Below, piece after piece: positions 11,546-52,708 of a stretch of DNA of 64,000 nt. A model generated the notes under the pieces. That model saw only the letters and a list, made by a program, of their open reading frames with translations. It did no database searches and was not told where the DNA came from. The position numbers and the translations under genes were made by a program. The DNA comes from Candidatus Eiseniibacteriota bacterium (GTDB lineage: Bacteria; Orphanbacterota; Orphanbacteria; Orphanbacterales; Orphanbacteraceae): positions 1-64,000 of the forward strand of contig JAFGGD010000041.1 in NCBI GenBank assembly GCA_016930695.1, written 5' to 3'. Positions within the stretch are counted from its first letter, which is position 1, and each line of letters opens with the position of its first letter.

Positions 11546-13465
11546 GTGCCGCAGGAGACCTTCACACCCTTCGTCCCGCCGGAAAAGCGCATCCCCGAGG
11601 CGACCGCCGTCGCGATCGGGCTCGGCCTGCTCCTCGGGCTGGTGATGACCGCCGCCAACACCTACCTCGGCCTCTACGCCGGGATGACCGTCTCCGCGTC
11701 GATCCCCGCGGCGGTGATCAGCATGGGGATTCTCCGCGGCGTCCTCCGGCGCGGCACCATTCTGGAGAACAACATCGTCCAGACCATCGCCTCGGCGGGC
11801 GAATCGCTCGCGGCGGGGATCATCTTCACCGTTCCCGCGCTCGTGCTGACCGGCTCCTGGCACGGCTTCCGCTATTGGCCGGTGACGATGATCGCGGCGC
11901 TCGGCGGGCTCCTCGGCGTGCTCTTCATGATTCCCCTCCGGCGGGCGCTGATCGTGGAGGAGAAGGAGCTGATCTATCCGGAGGGACTCGCCTGCGCGGA
12001 GGTGCTCGAAGCGGGAGAACGCGGCGGCGGCGGGATGAAGACGGTCTTCGCCGCCATGGGGCTCGGCGTCTTCTTCAAGGTCCTCATCGACGGCGTCTCC
12101 TTCGTGAAGGGGACGGTGGAGGGGGCGCTCCGGATTCGGGATAATTTGGTTTACATGGGAAGTGATATGTCGCCGGCGCTACTCGGCGTCGGTTTCATCG
12201 TCGGCCCCAACGTGGCGGCGTTGGTGTTCCTGGGCGGCGCGGTCGCCTGGCTCGTCGCCATCCCGGTTTACGCGGCGATCCACGGCCTCCCGGCCGGAAT
12301 CGATCTCGTCGAATACGCCAACGACGTTTGGGACACGCAGATCCGCTATCTGGGCGTCGGCGCGATGATCGTCGGCGGCGTCTGGTCGATCGTGAACGTG
12401 CGCCACGGCATCCGGAAAGGGATCGCCGGAGGGCTGGGGGGCGTCGGGATCGGCGGCGGCGGCGTGGAGACGCGGACCGAAAAGAACATTCCCATGCGCG
12501 AGATCGGACTCCTCCTTCTTCTCGTCCTCCCCTTCCTCTTCGGGCTCTACGTGCGGCTCGCCGGAAGCTGGACGGTGGGGATTACGGCGGGGCTGGTGAT
12601 GACGGTCTCCGCCTTCTTCTTCGTCGCCGTGTCGAGCTACATCGTCGGTCTCGTCGGGAGTTCGAACAATCCGGTGTCGGGGATGACGATCTGCACGGTC
12701 CTCTTCGCCTGCGCGGTGATGCTTCTTTTCGGCATGAGCGGCGCCGCGGGGATCGTGGCGGTGCTCGGCATCGCGGGCGTGGTCTGCTGCGCCGTCTGCA
12801 CCGCCGGCGACGTAAGCCAGGATCTCAAGACCGGCTATCTGGTCGGCGCGACACCGTGGAAGCAGCAGTGGTGCCAGGTCGCCGGCGCGATCGTCCCGGC
12901 ATTCATCATCGCGCCCATTCTGACGGTGCTCCACACCGCCTACGGGATCGGCGATCAGCTGCGCGCGCCGCAGGCGACACTCTTCGCCAACCTGACGCAG
13001 ACCGTTTTCGGCGGCGGGCGCCTTCCCTGGGGGATGATCATGAGCGGCGCGGCGATCGGCGTCGTCATCATCGCCGTGGACCTGGCGCTCAAGGCGCGGG
13101 GCGCGCGTTTCCGCGCCCACATCATGCCGGTGGCGGTGGGGATCTATCTCCCCCTCTCCCTCTCCACGCCGATCCTCCTCGGCGGGCTGGTGAGCCTCGC
13201 CGTGGCGCGGCGCGCGGCCGCGCGCGGCGAAGGGGCGGCGGCGCGCGCCCAGAACCGCGGTCTCCTCTTCGCCTCCGGTCTCGTCGCCGGCGAGGCGGTA
13301 ACCGGCGTGCTGCTCGCGACGGCGATCTTCTTCCTCGGCCAGAACACGCTCCCGATCACCGTGGTCGAGTCGAACGCGCTCTCGATCCTTCTCTTTCTCG
13401 GCGTGGCGGCCTTGCTCGCCCGTATCGCCCTGTCGGCCGCGCGAAAAGACGCCGGGGAGGATTGA
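11546..13465 (+). CDS. OPT family oligopeptide transporter
   Basis: 639 aa, ~16 TM, with the OPT hallmark NPVSGM and TGYLVGATP. Confidence 0.9.
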   Translation: MPQETFTPFVPPEKRIPEATAVAIGLGLLLGLVMTAANTYLGLYAGMTVSASIPAAVISMGILRGVLRRGTILENNIVQTIASAGESLAAGIIFTVPALVLTGSWHGFRYWPVTMIAALGGLLGVLFMIPLRRALIVEEKELIYPEGLACAEVLEAGERGGGGMKTVFAAMGLGVFFKVLIDGVSFVKGTVEGALRIRDNLVYMGSDMSPALLGVGFIVGPNVAALVFLGGAVAWLVAIPVYAAIHGLPAGIDLVEYANDVWDTQIRYLGVGAMIVGGVWSIVNVRHGIRKGIAGGLGGVGIGGGGVETRTEKNIPMREIGLLLLLVLPFLFGLYVRLAGSWTVGITAGLVMTVSAFFFVAVSSYIVGLVGSSNNPVSGMTICTVLFACAVMLLFGMSGAAGIVAVLGIAGVVCCAVCTAGDVSQDLKTGYLVGATPWKQQWCQVAGAIVPAFIIAPILTVLHTAYGIGDQLRAPQATLFANLTQTVFGGGRLPWGMIMSGAAIGVVIIAVDLALKARGARFRAHIMPVAVGIYLPLSLSTPILLGGLVSLAVARRAAARGEGAAARAQNRGLLFASGLVAGEAVTGVLLATAIFFLGQNTLPITVVESNALSILLFLGVAALLARIALSAARKDAGED

Positions 13466-36229: not shown

Positions 36230-37439
36230 ATGAATCACCCCCACTTCCATTCCCATGTATGCCGGTTATTTCTCGTCATCCCGCTCCTTTGCGTACTTTT
36301 CGCGGCAGTGACCGCGTCCGGAAGGACGTGGTATGTGCTCCCTGATTCGACAGGTGACGCGCCTGATATTCAGGCAGCGATCGACTCGAGCGGTGATGGA
36401 GACACGGTGCTCGTGGCGGCGGGCACGTACTATGTGAATCTTCAGATCACCGGGATTACCGACTTTACGCTGATCAGCGAATCAGGCCCCGAAGTAACCA
36501 TCCTGGACGGTAGTCCCTCGTTCAATCCGCAATATCGTCAAGTCGTTCGAGTTTTCCAATCCCCAGACGCACTCGTCGAGGGATTCACGATCCAGAATGC
36601 GAACCCAAGTACGATAGCTGGTTGGGGTGGGGGGATAAGGATCATAGGTGGGGGCCGCGTGACGATACGCGGAAACATCATCAGGGCGAACAACAGCAAG
36701 AGCCGTGGCGGTGGGCTGGCCTTTTCAAACCCTTGCGAAGGTTGCGGGGGCAGCGTGATCGAGGGCAACCAGTTTATTGAAAACACGTGCTCCAATAATG
36801 CCGCGGGTATTTGGATCTATGGGGTGGATGACGGGTGTGTTTTTATCAAAAACAACTTATTTCAAGGCAACGTTGGGGGCTATGGAGGGATAAGAGCCGA
36901 ATACTCAAACATTATATTGACCAACAACATATTTATGGCTAACGAGTCGACCTCATACTGTCTTGATATAGTGGGCACAGGTCGAGTGGAGGGAAATCTG
37001 GTTGTCCTGAATGAGGGGGGGGGGGATAGGTGTTGACGAAGGAGTGATCGCCTCGAATACAGTCGTAAGTAATAGCTGGGTTGGGATCAACGCGATGAGT
37101 TGTGAAACATATAATAATTTGTCGGTGGGGAACCAAATGGGCATCGGTACTTGCTACGTCGAGACAATCGTATGTAACAATTCGTGGGGCAATGTTGATT
37201 GGGATTATTATCCTGGTTGCGACTCCTGTGGAATGAATGGAAACATCTGTGTGAATCCCCTTTTCTGTGATCCGGAGAACGGCGACTACTCGATTGCGGA
37301 TGAATCGCCTTGTGCACCGGGGAACTCCGGAGGTTGCGGTCTGATAGGAGCGTTAGATGTGGGGTGCGTGTTCACGTCGGTCCCGATAGCCCGGCGGGAT
37401 ACGACCTCTTGGGGAACGATCAAGAAGATGTTCCGCTGA
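36230..37439 (+). pseudogene. Secreted right-handed parallel beta-helix repeat protein, interrupted or phase-switched by a +1/-1 frameshift at an 11-G homopolymer (37015-37025); frames 36230..37036 and 37011..37439
   Basis: Signal peptide MNHPHFHSHVCRLFLVIPLLCVLFAAVTASG. Beta-helix repeats (GNIIRANNS..GGGL, IEGNQFIENT, IKNNLFQGN, LTNNIFMANES) continue across the frame boundary into the second ORF (NTVVSNSWVGIN...NPLFCDPENGDYSIADESPCAPG). GC content is visibly ~50% against ~70% background, with an AT-rich promoter-like stretch at 36171-36229. Confidence 0.7.
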
Positions 37440-46413: not shown

Positions 46414-47463
46414 ATGCGGATCCAAACCTTCCTTCTTTTGTCGGCGGCGCTCCTCGCGTCGCCCGCGAGCGGCGGCGAAGGCGCGCTCCTTTACGACCGC
46501 GCGGAGGGGGGCGCGCAGGGATGGGCCACCCCGACCGGCCGTCTCCTCCCCGGCCCGGCGGGGCTCGAACTCCGAATCGCGGACCCGGTTTCCTCCTTCC
46601 TCAGCCCGGGCGGCCTCGCGGTCGACGCCGGCCGCGTCGATCGCGTCGAGATCGACCTCCGCGTCGAACCGCCCGGAACCGGCGCGTTCCTCTACTGGAC
46701 GGACGACGCGGAGAACGGTTTCGTCCCCCAATGGCGCGTCCCGATCCCCGAAGGCCGTTCCGTGACCCGCCTCTCCGGCAGTCCCTTCTGGCGCGGAAGC
46801 ATCGACCGTTTCCTCCTCGCGCCGGAGCCGGGGGCGACCCGGGTGGTCCTCTCGCGCTTCGAAACGCGCGGCCCGCGCGGCGCCGGAGAACGATCCGCCC
46901 GGCTCTGGCGCCGATTTTGGGAGACGGAACTGCGCGCGCAATACTCCGTGAACGGGATCCTCGGGGCGCGCGTCGGGCCCCTCCCTTTCCCTCTTCTCGT
47001 CGGCGTCCTCTCCCTTCTCATCCCGCTCCTCCTCGGCATGCGCGGCGGGAAAAAGGGACGTGGGGAACGGATCCGCCGCGGGGTTCGCGCCGGTCTTTTC
47101 GCGGGCGCCTTCCTTCTGGCGCTCCGGAGCGGCGCGGACATGATTCAGACGTGGCGCGTGGACGACGCTTTCTACGCCGGGAAGAGCCTGAGCCGAAAAA
47201 TGGAGGCGGCGAATCCGCCCGGTTTCTGGCGGCTCCTCCGAGAGAGCAAGGACTGGATCCCTCCCGGCGAGAGGGTGGAGGTGCGCGCCGAGCGCCCCTA
47301 CCCGTATGAGAAGGCCGCCTTCTATCTCTACCCGCGCCGCACGGCGGACGGCGCCCGCTATGTCGTTTCCTACCGCGCGCCGGCGCCGCCCGACTCCAAT
47401 GCCTGTGAGGAGATCCTGCGCATCGAGGGGACGGGAACGCTCTACCGGAGGATGGAGAGATGA
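46414..47463 (+). CDS. Hypothetical exported/membrane protein
   Basis: Signal peptide MRIQTFLLLSAALLASPASG, GGAGGA RBS, an internal TM stretch. Its stop overlaps the next start (atga). Confidence 0.55.
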   Translation: MRIQTFLLLSAALLASPASGGEGALLYDRAEGGAQGWATPTGRLLPGPAGLELRIADPVSSFLSPGGLAVDAGRVDRVEIDLRVEPPGTGAFLYWTDDAENGFVPQWRVPIPEGRSVTRLSGSPFWRGSIDRFLLAPEPGATRVVLSRFETRGPRGAGERSARLWRRFWETELRAQYSVNGILGARVGPLPFPLLVGVLSLLIPLLLGMRGGKKGRGERIRRGVRAGLFAGAFLLALRSGADMIQTWRVDDAFYAGKSLSRKMEAANPPGFWRLLRESKDWIPPGERVEVRAERPYPYEKAAFYLYPRRTADGARYVVSYRAPAPPDSNACEEILRIEGTGTLYRRMER

Positions 47464-48797
47464 AGGGGGGGCTCGCCGCGGCGATTACGATCGTGCTGAT
47501 GCTCGCCTCCGGCGAGGGGCTCCTCCTGCTCGTGGGCGGAAGGCGCGCCGCCGGAGGGATCGCCGCCCGCCTCGCCGCGGCATTCGGGCTCGGCGTCGCC
47601 CTCATCGCCACATGGTCTCTCCTCCTCGCCATCGCGGGCGCGCACGCCTCTTCCCTCCTCCTCGCCGCGCCGGTCCTTCTCTATCCCGCCGGCCGCCTCC
47701 GCGCCGGAGGCTCCGGCGCCGCGCTTCGGATCGCCGTCCCCCGCATCCGCCCCGGAGCCGCCGCCGCGGCCGCCTACGCCCTGGTCGCCGTCCACGTGGT
47801 CTACGTCTTCCGCCACGCCCTCCTCCGGCCGATCCACGGCTGGGACGCCTGGAGGATCTGGTCCTTTCGGGCTAAAGTGATCGCCGCGGAAGGAGGATTT
47901 CCGGCCGACTTCTTCGCCGGCGACTGGGCCGGCTTCCCCGGCTACCCGCTCGGCATCCCCTTCGTCGAGGCGTTCATCGCCCGTGCGATCGGCTACTGGC
48001 ACGAACCGATGATCAAGTCGATCTTTCCCCTCTTCTACGTCGGCGTGGTCGCTCTCGCGGCGGTCCTCCTACGCGCATCCGCCGGGCGCCGCGCCGTCCC
48101 GGCCGGCATCGCGGTGATCGCATCCATGCCCCTTCTGGTTCATCACGGCACCGTGGCGTACATGGACCTTCCCCTCGCCTTCTTCCTTCTCGCCGCCGCG
48201 ACCCATCTGGTCCTCTGGGAGAAAGAGGGGCGCGAGGCGAACCTGCTCATCGCGGCGGCGCACGCCGGCTTCCTGGCGCAGGTGAAAAACGAAGGGCTTC
48301 CCCTCCTCCTCCTCGTCACGGCGGTCTACCTGTGGCGGGCGCGGCGCGCGGGAACGCTCCGCCGGACCTGGCCGCGCTGGTTCGCGCCGCTTCTTTTCTT
48401 CTCCCTCCCCTGGCTCCTCTTCAAGTACGGCGCCGGCGTCCCCGAATCGCCTTACCATCTCTTCGCGCCCCCCGGCCCGGCGGCGCTCGCCGGCCGGCTC
48501 CTCGACTTCATCCGTCTCACCCTCGCGGGCCTCTTCTTGAACGGGAGCTGGGGGATAGCCCCCTTCGCCCTCCTTCCGCTCCTCGTGCCCGGCGCGCGGG
48601 GGCGGGCGGGGACGCCGGCACTCCTCTTCGGCGGCGGACTCCTCCTCTTCGGCGCCGCCTATTGTCTCACCGGCAGCCACGACTTTCTGATGAACGGCAC
48701 CGCCCTCGGGCGCAACCTCCTCGTCCTGATGCCCCTCGGCGCGGCCGCGGGGGTCGCCTCTCTTTTCCCGGAACCCTCCGGCGGGCCGCGAGTCTGA
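47460..48797 (+). CDS. Polytopic membrane protein (~10-12 TM), possibly a GT-C type glycosyl/arabinosyltransferase
   Basis: Hydrophobicity pattern only; no definitive motif. Confidence 0.55.
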   Translation: MKGGLAAAITIVLMLASGEGLLLLVGGRRAAGGIAARLAAAFGLGVALIATWSLLLAIAGAHASSLLLAAPVLLYPAGRLRAGGSGAALRIAVPRIRPGAAAAAAYALVAVHVVYVFRHALLRPIHGWDAWRIWSFRAKVIAAEGGFPADFFAGDWAGFPGYPLGIPFVEAFIARAIGYWHEPMIKSIFPLFYVGVVALAAVLLRASAGRRAVPAGIAVIASMPLLVHHGTVAYMDLPLAFFLLAAATHLVLWEKEGREANLLIAAAHAGFLAQVKNEGLPLLLLVTAVYLWRARRAGTLRRTWPRWFAPLLFFSLPWLLFKYGAGVPESPYHLFAPPGPAALAGRLLDFIRLTLAGLFLNGSWGIAPFALLPLLVPGARGRAGTPALLFGGGLLLFGAAYCLTGSHDFLMNGTALGRNLLVLMPLGAAAGVASLFPEPSGGPRV

Positions 48798-48927
48798 TCG
48801 GGCCATACCCTTCCTGGTCCCCTCCGCGCGGGTCTGTTAAAATGGATTTTCCCCGCCCGAGGAGAGGGGTTTTTCCTATGTTTTCCACACGAGCGGCGAA
48901 CCATAGAAACGACGACCGGGAGTGAAC

Positions 48928-50520
48928 ATGAAACCGAAGGACGAAGCGAAATACCGTTCCCCGATGGCCGAAGCCGTATTCGAGGCGTACCGGCGCGGGG
49001 AAGAGGACGAAACGATGAACCCCCTCGTCCTGGTCGGCCGGGACGGAAAACCGGTCGGCGCGCCCGACCCGGGGGATTCGCTCATCTTCTACGACATCCG
49101 CGGCGAGAGGGAGGTGGAGATTTCCGAGGCCTTCGTCGAAAAGGACTTCCCCCACTTCCCGGTGCGGGAGTGGCTCGACCTCCGCTACGTCACCATGATC
49201 CGCTATCACGAGAAGCTGAACGCGCGGGTCGCCTTCCCGCCGATCGGCGCGGTGGCGGGGACGCTGAGCGAAACGGTCGGCCGCGCCGGTCTCCGCCAGG
49301 CGAAGGTGGTGGAGACCGAGAAGCTGATCCACCTCACCTACTTCCTGAACGGCAAGAACCGCGACCCCTTCCCCAGCGAGGAGCATCACGGCATTCCCTC
49401 CCCCACGGTGCCGGACTACACCGCCGTGCCCGAGCTGGAGGCGGAGAAGGTGGCGGACACCATCATCGACCGCCTCGGCGATCCCGGCATCGCCCTCATC
49501 ACGGCCAACTTCGCCAACATGGACGTGCTCGGCCACCTGGAGGACGACGACGCGGCGATCCGCGCGGTGGAGACGGTGGACCGCTGCGTGGGGCGCGTGG
49601 TGGAGGCGGCGCGCGCGGCCGGCGCGGACGTGCTGATCACGGCGGACCACGGGACGGTGGAGAAGCGCCTCTACCCGGAGGGGACGAAGGACACCGGTCA
49701 CACCGACAGCCCGGTCCCTCTCGTCTACATCTCCGCGGGCGGCGTGGACGGCGTCACCTGCCGGGAGAAGGGCGCGCTCACCGACGTGGCCCCCACGGCT
49801 CTCGCGCTCCTCGGCTTGAAGCGACCGAAGGAGATGACCGGCGAGAACCTCCTCGGGGGCGTGCCGGAGAGGAAGGGACGGCGGCTCCTCCTCCTGATCG
49901 CCGACGGCTGGGGCTACCGCGAGGAGACCCACGGCAACCTGGTGGCGACGGCGAACACGCCGAAAATGGACCGTTATCTCGCCGAATGTCCCCACGGACT
50001 TCTCGCCGCCGCCGGCGAGGCGGTCGGCCTGCCGGAAGGGACCGTGGGGAACAGCGAGGCGGGACACCTCCACATCGGCGCCGGCCGGGTGATCTATTCG
50101 GACCGTCTCCGCATCGACAAGGCGATCGCGGACGGCTCCTTTCGCAAAAACGAAGCCTTCCTCTGGGCGATGGATGAGGCGGCGCAACGCGATAAAACCC
50201 TCCACCTCCTCGGCATCGTCTCCTTCTTCAGCAGCCACGGCTCGCTGGACCACTTGATGGAGCTTCTCGAGACGGCGAAGGAGCGTGGGGTGCAGCGCCT
50301 TCGCGTCCACAGCCTTCTCGGCCGCCGCGGTGAGAGGCCCGAGGCGGGCGCCGCGTACATCGAGGCGGTGGACGACAAGTGCCGTGAACTGGGACTCGGG
50401 GTGGTTTGCACGGTGACCGGCCGGTACTGGGCGCTGGACCGTGAGGAGAACTGGGATCGTGTGGAGAAAGCGTACCGGGCGATCGCATTCGGCGACGGGA
50501 GGACCGTCCCGCAAGCGTAG
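48928..50520 (+). CDS. gpmI: 2,3-bisphosphoglycerate-independent phosphoglycerate mutase, circularly permuted form
   Basis: Canonical C-terminal iPGM blocks (ETEKLIHLTYFLNG, NFANMDVLGH, LITADHGT, HTDSPVPLVYI, EMTGENLL) occupy residues 1-~300. Canonical N-terminal blocks (LLLLIADGWG, TPKMD, GLPEGTVGNSEAGHLHIGAGRVIYSDRLRID) and the transferase domain (GRYWALDREENWDRVEKAY) follow. RBS GGGAG before ATG 48928. Confidence 0.85.
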   Translation: MKPKDEAKYRSPMAEAVFEAYRRGEEDETMNPLVLVGRDGKPVGAPDPGDSLIFYDIRGEREVEISEAFVEKDFPHFPVREWLDLRYVTMIRYHEKLNARVAFPPIGAVAGTLSETVGRAGLRQAKVVETEKLIHLTYFLNGKNRDPFPSEEHHGIPSPTVPDYTAVPELEAEKVADTIIDRLGDPGIALITANFANMDVLGHLEDDDAAIRAVETVDRCVGRVVEAARAAGADVLITADHGTVEKRLYPEGTKDTGHTDSPVPLVYISAGGVDGVTCREKGALTDVAPTALALLGLKRPKEMTGENLLGGVPERKGRRLLLLIADGWGYREETHGNLVATANTPKMDRYLAECPHGLLAAAGEAVGLPEGTVGNSEAGHLHIGAGRVIYSDRLRIDKAIADGSFRKNEAFLWAMDEAAQRDKTLHLLGIVSFFSSHGSLDHLMELLETAKERGVQRLRVHSLLGRRGERPEAGAAYIEAVDDKCRELGLGVVCTVTGRYWALDREENWDRVEKAYRAIAFGDGRTVPQA

Positions 50521-52708
50521 GGCGATATTCGCGGCGACCCTTCTGCTCGCCCTCTTTCCCGCGGGCGCGATGGGCGGCGGCGGGGCCGATCCGCCGTTGC
50601 CCGCCGGAGGGCCGCCCGGCCGGGAGGAGTGGATCCGCGCGCTCCGCTCCGCGCCGAAAAGGAGCATCACGCCCTCCCGCCGCGCTCCCGCCCCGGGCGA
50701 CACGCTTCTCGCGTCCATCGCCGGCGAGATCCACGCCGACTCGCTCCGCCGGACCGTGGCGGATCTGGTCGCCTTCGGCACCCGCTACGAGTACGCCGCC
50801 GAACAGGAAAGCGCGGCGGCCTATCTGTACGACCGCTTCCGCGCCCTCGGCCTCGATCCCTACTACGAACCGTACGAACTCTCCGAGTGGGACGCCGTCG
50901 ACGCGGACTGGCTCTCCGGCGGGAGCGTAGGGTGGATGATCTGGTCCGACTCGCGGCAGGGGGATCGGAGCGTGATCCTCGCGACGGGAAACGGCGGCGC
51001 GAGCTGGACCGCCGAAGCGACGGTGCCCGCGCTCCTCCGGTCGATCGCCGCGACGCCCGGCGAGACATGGGCGGTGGGGGACTCGGGGATCGTGCTCCGG
51101 CGCGGCTCCTCCGCCTGGACCGTGGCGGACACCCTCGGCGACGCCCCGCTCGTCTCCGTCGACTTCGCCGACGACCGGCACGGCGTCGCGGTGAACGGCG
51201 AGGGATGGGTCTGGCTGACCGACGACGGCGGCTCCGTCTGGAGCGGCGAGCGAATCACCACTTCACTCCTCAAGGGCGCCGTCCGGGTCGACTCGGCGCA
51301 CACCTGGGTCTACGGCGGGATGGGCAAGATCTGGAGGCTCCGGCCGGAAGGGTGGGTCCTCGATGCGCTGCCGATCCGGAAAACGATCTACGACCTCGCA
51401 TTCGCCGACACCTCCTTCGCCGTGGGCGCCGTATCCGGCCCCTGGCTGCTCCTTTGGGACGGCGCGGCCTGGGACACCCTCTCCACCGGCGTCCCCTACG
51501 GCTTCTCCGTCGGCGTAAAGGGGGACTCCACGGTCTGGCTCGGCGGTCTCGATTCGCCGGTCCGCCTCACCCGGGTGATCCGCTCCTCCGACCGGGGCCG
51601 CACCTGGGAGGAGGTCCTCTTCCCGATCGGCGTGCTCTGGCGGAGCGTGAACCACATCCACTTCGGGCCGGAAGACACGGTTCTCCTCGCCGGCTACGAC
51701 GGCCTCTCCCTCCGCAGCGAAGACGGCGGCGACTCGTGGGTCTTCCCTCCGCTCGCCCCCTCCATCGCCCACCCCTCGCGCAACGTGGCGGCACAAATCC
51801 CCGGACGGGTCCGTCCCGACAGCGTGGTGATCCTCTCCGGCCACTACGATTCGATCGTGTACGACACCTCTTTCGACCCCTACGCGTCGGCGCCCGGCGC
51901 GGACGACGACGCCACCGGCGTCGCGGCGGTGCTCGAGGCGGCGCGCGCCTTCGCCGGGCGCGACTTCGCCTACACGGTCCGTTTCGTCCTTTTCAGCGGC
52001 GAGGAGCTGGGCCTTCTGGGGAGCACCGCCTACGCCTCGGCCCTCGCCGAGGCGGACGAAGCGATCCGCGCGGCGGTGCAGATCGACATGATCGGCATCC
52101 CCGGCCGTCCCTCCCACCTCTACGCGAACGAAGCCTCCGCGTGGATCCTGGACGAGGGGGCGGCGGCGGCAAGCGTCGCGGCGCCCGACCTGGATCTCTC
52201 CTACGACATCTCCCCCTGCATGGTCTACAGCGACCACGCCTCCTTCTGGCAAAGAGGCTACCCGGCGGCGATGCTGGGTGAGACGATCGAGGAGGACAAT
52301 CCCCTCCACACGCCGGGGGACACCCTCGGCAACTTGGACTTCGCCTTCACCGAAGAGAACGCCCGCTTCGCGGCGGCCCTGACGGCGCGACTCGCCGGCG
52401 TTTACACGCCGCCCGATCCCGATCTCGTCGATGCCCTTCCGGTCCGTCCCAACCCCGCCGGCGGCGCGGTGACGATCCCCTTCGCGCGCCCCGCCGGCGG
52501 CGGCACGGTCTCCGTGGCGATCTACGACGTGTCGGGACGGTTGGTGCGGGCGCTCGGCGCGGGGGAGATCGCGGCGCGGGGGGACATATTGGAGGCGGTC
52601 TGGGACGGGCGCGGCGCCTCCGGCCGCGAAACCGCGGCGGGGGTGTACTTCGCCCGGATCGAGGCGGGAGGCCGGAAGACCAGCAAGAAAATCGTCCGGC
52701 TGAGGTGA
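50459..52708 (+). CDS. M28 family peptidase with inserted BNR/Ycf48-like beta-propeller and T9SS C-terminal sorting domain
   Basis: M28 blocks (HYDSIVYD...APGADDDATGVAAVLEAARAF, SGEELGLLGS, DHASF). Middle sialidase/BNR-like repeats (SxDxGxSW-like: TDDGGSVWS, SSDRGRTWE, SEDGGDSWV). C-terminal VRPNPAGG...VAIYDVSGRLV...GVYFARIE...KIVRLR. The start is uncertain: GTG 50459 or 50441 give a signal peptide, and both overlap the gpmI 3' end. Confidence 0.8.
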   Translation: MWRKRTGRSHSATGGPSRKRRAIFAATLLLALFPAGAMGGGGADPPLPAGGPPGREEWIRALRSAPKRSITPSRRAPAPGDTLLASIAGEIHADSLRRTVADLVAFGTRYEYAAEQESAAAYLYDRFRALGLDPYYEPYELSEWDAVDADWLSGGSVGWMIWSDSRQGDRSVILATGNGGASWTAEATVPALLRSIAATPGETWAVGDSGIVLRRGSSAWTVADTLGDAPLVSVDFADDRHGVAVNGEGWVWLTDDGGSVWSGERITTSLLKGAVRVDSAHTWVYGGMGKIWRLRPEGWVLDALPIRKTIYDLAFADTSFAVGAVSGPWLLLWDGAAWDTLSTGVPYGFSVGVKGDSTVWLGGLDSPVRLTRVIRSSDRGRTWEEVLFPIGVLWRSVNHIHFGPEDTVLLAGYDGLSLRSEDGGDSWVFPPLAPSIAHPSRNVAAQIPGRVRPDSVVILSGHYDSIVYDTSFDPYASAPGADDDATGVAAVLEAARAFAGRDFAYTVRFVLFSGEELGLLGSTAYASALAEADEAIRAAVQIDMIGIPGRPSHLYANEASAWILDEGAAAASVAAPDLDLSYDISPCMVYSDHASFWQRGYPAAMLGETIEEDNPLHTPGDTLGNLDFAFTEENARFAAALTARLAGVYTPPDPDLVDALPVRPNPAGGAVTIPFARPAGGGTVSVAIYDVSGRLVRALGAGEIAARGDILEAVWDGRGASGRETAAGVYFARIEAGGRKTSKKIVRLR

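Follow-up and report, generated by a model that had tools for sequence, protein, structure and literature searches.

A probably functional, circularly permuted cofactor-independent phosphoglycerate mutase from Candidatus Eiseniibacteriota and its relatives in uncultured phyla

The gene and the order of its parts

The window analysed here is a 64,000-nucleotide stretch of DNA from a Candidatus Eiseniibacteriota bacterium (positions 1 to 64,000 of contig JAFGGD010000041.1, assembly GCA_016930695.1), and the gene under study, on its plus strand, encodes a protein in which the sequence blocks of cofactor-independent phosphoglycerate mutase (iPGM) occur in swapped order. iPGM belongs to central carbon metabolism, is a textbook example of a two-domain enzyme, and serves as a drug target in nematodes and trypanosomatids. 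According to the list of open reading frames (ORFs), a single unbroken frame runs from a GTG at 48922 or an ATG at 48928 to 50520; the ATG follows a Shine-Dalgarno sequence and also fits the N-termini of homologues in the alignment. Residues are numbered from this ATG, giving 530 amino acids (aa); counted from the GTG the protein has 532, and the two aligned blocks described below become query residues 11-311 and 322-528. The 530-aa product is identical to a database protein (P0001) that NCBI labels 'alkaline phosphatase family protein [Candidatus Eisenbacteria bacterium]'. Its parts, with the canonical residue numbers of the B. stearothermophilus enzyme, are as follows.

48918 to 48922, plus strand: Shine-Dalgarno sequence GGGAG, 5 nucleotides upstream of the ATG at 48928, read directly from the sequence
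48928 to 50520, plus strand: whole coding sequence of the permuted iPGM, 530 aa plus stop, from the ORF list
48928 to 48951, plus strand: new N-terminal tail, aa 1-8, variable in the homologue alignment, with a predicted local distance difference test score (pLDDT) below 50 at residues 1-5
48952 to 49245, plus strand: C-terminal part of the transferase domain, aa 9-106, canonical residues ~213-310 by phmmer to 1ejj and the residue map, with R58 and R61 (canonical R261, R264) within the motif IFYDIRGERE
49246 to 49854, plus strand: segment 2 of the phosphatase (alkaline-phosphatase-like) domain, aa 107-309, canonical ~311-509, the best Pfam Metalloenzyme stretch and aligned to 1ejj, with K132, D199, H203, D240, H241 and H258 (canonical K336, D403, H407, D444, H445, H462)
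49855 to 49884, plus strand: linker GGVPERKGRR, aa 310-319, between the old C-terminus and the old N-terminus, unaligned to 1ejj
49885 to 50097, plus strand: segment 1 of the phosphatase domain, aa 320-390, canonical 6-76, with D326 (D12), the nucleophile S376 (S62) and H380 (H66)
50098 to 50517, plus strand: N-terminal part of the transferase domain with the new C-terminus, aa 391-530, canonical 77-212, iPGM_N profile positions 1-130, with H437 (H123), R467 (R153), G468 (in place of D154), R499 (R185) and R505 (R191)

Alignment to the B. stearothermophilus iPGM of known structure (1ejj, 511 aa) was highly significant with phmmer (E 2e-125 overall), and fell into two blocks of equal strength (each E ~1e-61): aa 9-309 correspond to canonical residues 213-509, and aa 320-526 to canonical residues 6-212. 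The break at canonical 212/213 is exact, with neither overlap nor gap. The E. coli enzyme GpmM gives the same picture by tblastn, its residues 226-511 matching window positions 48985-49854 and its residues 8-212 matching 49885-50499. In a phmmer search of all PDB sequences the only matches were iPGMs; each of the 11 needs two stretches in swapped order, and none of them aligns collinearly over its full length. The Pfam profiles Metalloenzyme (E 7e-53) and iPGM_N (E 5e-50) each match the protein in two stretches, and the precomputed domain order on an independent assembly reads iPGM_N, Metalloenzyme, Metalloenzyme, iPGM_N. It is practically certain, therefore, that this is a cleanly circularly permuted iPGM.

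A first-pass annotation of this DNA had listed the iPGM signature motifs and their exchanged order in one frame without a stop; all of the motifs are present in the two-block alignments to 1ejj and GpmM, and the frame is indeed single to 50520. It had also proposed comparison with the B. stearothermophilus and E. coli enzymes, whose blocks proved swapped and not collinear, and a look at Pfam domain order, for which the independent assembly gave the permuted one. The order of the blocks thus stands as first described, but their limits do not: the breakpoint had been placed near canonical residues 300/310 and lies at 212/213, so that ~100 residues from the end of the transferase domain also belong to the first block, and the second stops at canonical 212 instead of ~300. 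The structural rationale given for the permutation was correct as regards the old termini, whose junction falls within the phosphatase domain. The new termini are located in a transferase-domain loop, and it is this second domain that has become discontinuous.

Canonical iPGM has two domains linked via two hinge peptides (PMC5382265). The present chain runs from transferase residues 213-310 through phosphatase residues 311-509, the linker and phosphatase residues 6-76 to transferase residues 77-212. As domain limits for 1EJJ we take residues 1-76 and 311-511 for the phosphatase and 77-310 for the transferase. Because the chain is cut within the transferase domain, it is this domain that is now in two pieces, while the phosphatase domain forms a single stretch (aa ~107-390), the reverse of the nesting in canonical GpmI; the permuted chain still crosses between domains twice. 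The linker is poorly conserved, with 20-50% identity even to the nearest homologues and a length that varies within the family; here it is about as long as the unaligned canonical tails combined (2 + 5 residues) plus three.

Active site and predicted structure

For a residue map, "un-permuted" sequences were aligned with 132 canonical iPGMs and 1ejj, using B. stearothermophilus numbering; 25 sequences represent the clade to which the window protein belongs (group A, below). The seven metal-site residues, including the serine nucleophile, are D326, S376, D199, H203, D240, H241 and H258, equivalent to canonical D12, S62, D403, H407, D444, H445 and H462, and all seven are invariant in group A (25/25); the phospho-acceptor serine S376 lies in the motif GNSEAGH and is likewise invariant. 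In the transferase/substrate set, seven of eight residues are invariant (H437, R467, R499, R505, R58, R61 and K132), the exception being D154; with H380 (H66), which is also invariant, 15 of 16 catalytic or substrate residues are kept throughout. We take H123, R153, D154, R185, R191, R261, R264 and K336 to be the phosphoglycerate-binding residues, as in 1EJJ and 1O98; our literature searches returned nothing on published roles for Asp154 and the other active-site residues. In place of D154 all group A sequences have a glycine (Gly468), within an invariant GRRGE loop where canonical enzymes have DGRD, and the alignment shows an invariant Glu two residues past it. More broadly, canonical iPGM has 85 positions with at least 90% conservation, and group A keeps 68 of them; M189L is among the changes that are fixed.

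The first-pass annotation had suggested a structural model as a check, and the AlphaFold2 model is confident (pLDDT 86, predicted template modelling score 0.80), with the linker itself at pLDDT 84-95.

Family, distribution and gene neighbourhoods

Whether related genomes share the permutation was a further question raised with the first description, and they do. From a protein collection of 5.8 billion we took the best 120 clusters; these are collinear with the query over 95-100% of its length at 53-75% identity (one is a fragment), and BLAST of the two halves classed all 120 as permuted. Sources named among them are Eisenbacteria, Latescibacterota, Armatimonadetes, Anaerolineae and Planctomycetota. 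From the GTDB species-representative genomes the best 80 loci were taken, out of more than 600 matching stretches listed, and all 80 match query residues ~1-527 in one piece. They derive from Eisenbacteria, Gemmatimonadetes, Anaerolineae/Chloroflexota, Aminicenantes, Zixibacteria, Thermodesulfobacteriota/Syntrophaceae/Smithellaceae, Phycisphaerales/Planctomycetaceae, Armatimonadota, Neomarinimicrobiota, Thermoanaerobaculaceae and unclassified metagenome-assembled genomes. About ten phyla thus have full-length collinear matches; the architecture is, as had been remarked, not the usual bacterial one, yet it is common in several uncultured phyla.

We also scanned 1.84 billion representatives clustered at 50% identity and classed the best 150 matches: 15 were permuted and one partial, interleaved with 134 canonical sequences at similar identity (35-44%). 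In every permuted protein the new N- and C-termini fall at the same places, as does the linker, and three groups can be told apart by their motifs. Group A, with the window protein, has GRRGE, RGERE and SSHGS, the last where canonical enzymes have GVHSH. Group B (e.g., P0123) has DGRS, RRGERE and SSHG, and here even the equivalent of Arg153 varies. Group C (P0127/P0287, P0131, P0143 and a module in P0247) has the canonical motifs DGRD, FRxDRAR, GVHS and ADHGN, and is ~50% identical to canonical enzymes. P0247 is a predicted protein of 5027 aa, in which the permuted iPGM module with canonical motifs occupies residues 3859-4375.

In a neighbour-joining tree of the un-permuted sequences, group A formed a clan in 200/200 bootstraps and A+B in 198/200, whereas group C was scattered among canonical sequences and A+B+C came together in 1/200. 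The branch from A+B to the canonical enzymes is long, the mean distance between permuted and canonical sequences being 1.21 as against 0.85 and 0.99 within the classes. The P0127 lineage of group C is tiny, with four clusters of full-length proteins (83-100% identity) plus two fragments (75-76%) and, as its next relatives, canonical enzymes at ~50% identity. On these sequence comparisons, group A is a large, derived, monophyletic clade that is widespread in uncultured phyla; the permutation may have arisen in one ancient event or several times at the same permissive loop.

Upstream of the window gene (47460-48797, plus strand) lies a gene for a 445-aa polytopic membrane protein with a sub-threshold match to a PMT-type glycosyltransferase, and downstream (50441-52708, plus strand) one for an M28 peptidase with BNR-like repeats and a Por/T9SS C-terminal sorting domain. 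The longest ORF of the peptidase overlaps the iPGM stop by ~80 nucleotides (nt), and the gene call on the independent Logan assembly by ~62 nt (L081, 11532 versus the iPGM end at 11593). No second iPGM and no cofactor-dependent phosphoglycerate mutase was found within the 64-kb window, and scans of it against Rfam and for tRNAs found nothing. Elsewhere in the window, positions 36230-37439 (plus strand) have a GC content of 52.5% versus ~66% window-wide, with two adjoining ORFs, one (268 aa) having a right-handed beta-helix domain (PF13229) and a signal-like N-terminus, the other (142 aa) without a Pfam match; the pair has the appearance of a single gene for a secreted beta-helix protein that a frame change has broken in two, and the DNA may be foreign.

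For the 80 group A loci, the surrounding ORFs were clustered and searched by tblastn with E. coli FbaA, Pgk, Epd, Eno, TpiA, GapA and GpmA and with a PGI. The recurrent neighbours are lineage-specific only: ABC transporter genes, an M23/EnvC-like peptidase (15 loci) and a histidine phosphatase (His_Phos_1, six loci). The M23/EnvC-like gene lies within ~2 kb of the permuted iPGM in Syntrophaceae/Deltaproteobacteria and Aminicenantes (e.g., L055:5687-6055, L030:7468-7833); it recalls the E. coli order gpmM-envC-yibQ and is a weak hint of positional orthology with canonical gpmI. In the six Anaerolineae/Chloroflexota loci (L003, L005, L006, L008, L010, L011) the histidine-phosphatase gene (208 aa; e.g., L006:9590-10213, His_Phos_1 E 3e-50) starts 4 nt before the iPGM stop, and the two genes appear to be translationally coupled; the His_Phos_1 superfamily includes cofactor-dependent phosphoglycerate mutase. 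In two assemblies, genes of permuted proteins with canonical motifs (P0287 and P0289) lie directly behind pgi, with an 8-nt overlap with the pgi stop (L082:6620-9626, L084:6554-9638), and are followed by genes for an M50 peptidase and an aminoacyl-tRNA synthetase (Pfam tRNA-synt_1b) and by scpA/scpB. As this P0127-lineage gene overlaps pgi, the permuted topology is evidently used in a glycolytic context.

Function, origin and meaning

The window derives from a metagenome-assembled genome, where chimeras can in principle occur, and the first description had named a chimera of two gene copies as the way in which the permutation might be illusory. An assembly or binning artefact of this kind, or a collapsed tandem duplicate, is vanishingly improbable because at least 120 protein clusters and 80 GTDB species genomes, drawn from many studies, show this architecture again, with the blocks in one order and the termini and linker in the same places. 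An independent Logan assembly of run SRR13394437 carries the protein unchanged, with the same genes on either side; composition is uniform, with a GC content of 0.68 versus 0.67 in the two halves of the gene and a GC3 (the fraction of G+C at third codon positions) of 0.93 versus 0.84, and where one half is more or less similar to a close homologue, so is the other. The gene region lacks internal DNA repeats, the flanking genes are unrelated, and no second iPGM fragment is found in the window. That the gene is a decaying or inactive relic, a scrambled pseudogene whose frame stayed open by chance, has only the unusual order to suggest it and is very improbable: an alignment of 26 sequences with 53-75% identity to the window protein has 134 invariant columns, neither the nucleophile nor any metal ligand has been lost, and the predicted fold is confident.

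We favour, with good but not full confidence, the reading that the gene encodes a genuine, functional and naturally circularly permuted iPGM. Its function would probably be that of an ordinary Mn-dependent mutase interconverting 2-phosphoglycerate (2-PG) and 3-phosphoglycerate (3-PG) via phospho-Ser376, since the metal ligands and phosphoglycerate-binding residues are kept, a permuted lineage is linked to pgi, and the iPGM equivalog profile TIGR01307 is passed (467.4 bits summed over two stretches, cutoff 330.65). Several observations weigh against this reading. The stricter NCBI equivalog NF003897 scores below its cutoff (406.6 versus 862), and the PGAP label is only 'alkaline phosphatase family protein'; changes are fixed in group A both in the substrate-facing loop (D151G, G152R, D154G) and elsewhere (V122S, N259D, D263E, G409E, N447T); and no glycolytic genes were found within 8 kb on either side, in the window or at the 80 group A loci. 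The same features could be explained if the permutation were real and group A a neofunctionalised paralogue, a phosphomutase or phosphatase that applies the same Ser/di-metal chemistry to a substrate other than phosphoglycerate. The invariant, group-specific swaps in the substrate loop and near the metal site (GRRGE for DGRD with the loss of Asp154, SSHGS for GVHSH, G409E, N447T), the long branch between A+B and the canonical enzymes, the lack of a glycolytic neighbourhood, the coupling to a histidine-phosphatase gene in six loci and the variable Arg153 of the sister group B all speak for such a change. We nevertheless think it unlikely: the residues that we take to bind the carboxylate and phosphate (H123, R153, R185, R191, R261, R264, K336) are all invariant in group A, the TIGR01307 cutoff is passed, and the invariant Glu beyond Gly468 may stand in for the lost Asp154.

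Relative to canonical GpmI, the chain starts at about residue 213, in a loop between two transferase helices, passes through hinge 2 into phosphatase part 2 and the old C-terminus, and continues by the ~10-residue linker into the old N-terminus, phosphatase part 1 and hinge 1, to end at about canonical residue 212; the transferase domain is put together from both chain ends. With two domain crossings retained, the open/close motion that builds the active site would still be allowed. The chemistry is expected to match that of canonical enzymes: two metal ions (Mn2+) would assist the transfer of phosphate from 3-PG or 2-PG to Ser376; the glycerate, held by the conserved transferase Arg and His residues, would be re-oriented and the phosphate then returned to it.

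Natural circular permutants are explained by a model of duplication, fusion and truncation, and have an intact fold with the sequence order swapped. The window protein resembles them in having a linker about as long as two old tails and new termini in a surface loop. A linker of this length suggests that the gene was duplicated in tandem, that the copies were fused in frame and that the outer segments were lost; no tandem-fused, double-length intermediate was found among matches of at least 575 aa, and the gene region, being free of internal repeats, carries no trace of a tandem duplication in its DNA.

Among known systems, the closest is canonical GpmI/GpmM (1EJJ/1O98; E. coli b3612; TIGR01307, EC 5.4.2.12), to which the window protein is 36-40% identical over both blocks. 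The two have in common the metal ligands, the Ser nucleophile, the equivalents of Lys336 and His123, five Arg residues and the two domain crossings; they differ in the permutation at 212/213 with fusion of the old termini through a ~10-residue linker, in the reversed domain nesting, and in GRRGE for DGRD and the other clade-specific fixed changes. Group B and C proteins share the new termini and linker position of the window protein, and group C differs in keeping the canonical motifs. ApgM (TIGR00306, 29.7 bits versus a cutoff of 320) and DeoB have another inserted or cap domain, score far below the family cutoffs, and in neither is the order permuted.

Full-text searches combining circular permutation with phosphoglycerate mutase or iPGM found no description of a permuted iPGM, and surveys of phosphoglycerate mutase evolution do not mention one (PMC2964296, PMC12525153). 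Nor did phmmer against the PDB find a solved structure with the permuted order. The sequences themselves are already in databases: JGI labels such proteins as iPGM, whereas NCBI calls them 'alkaline phosphatase family protein' or 'PglZ domain-containing protein'. As a result, genome-based reconstructions of metabolism in Eisenbacteria, Aminicenantes, Anaerolineae, Syntrophaceae and other groups may wrongly appear to lack phosphoglycerate mutase; in metagenome papers we found no statement on a missing phosphoglycerate mutase. Recognition of the permuted form is useful for correcting annotation in uncultured phyla.

A widespread natural permutant with inverted domain insertion offers a ready-made test of hinge closure against chain connectivity, and the permuted iPGM lends itself well to studying the origin and fixation of circular permutations. 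A further scenario, which we consider rather unlikely, combines several permutation events at the same transferase loop, with group C apart from A+B, and a group A that either supplies many uncultured phyla with their only glycolytic mutase or acts on a new substrate. Were it true, a step of central metabolism in these phyla would be carried by, or proceed beside, an undescribed form of enzyme.
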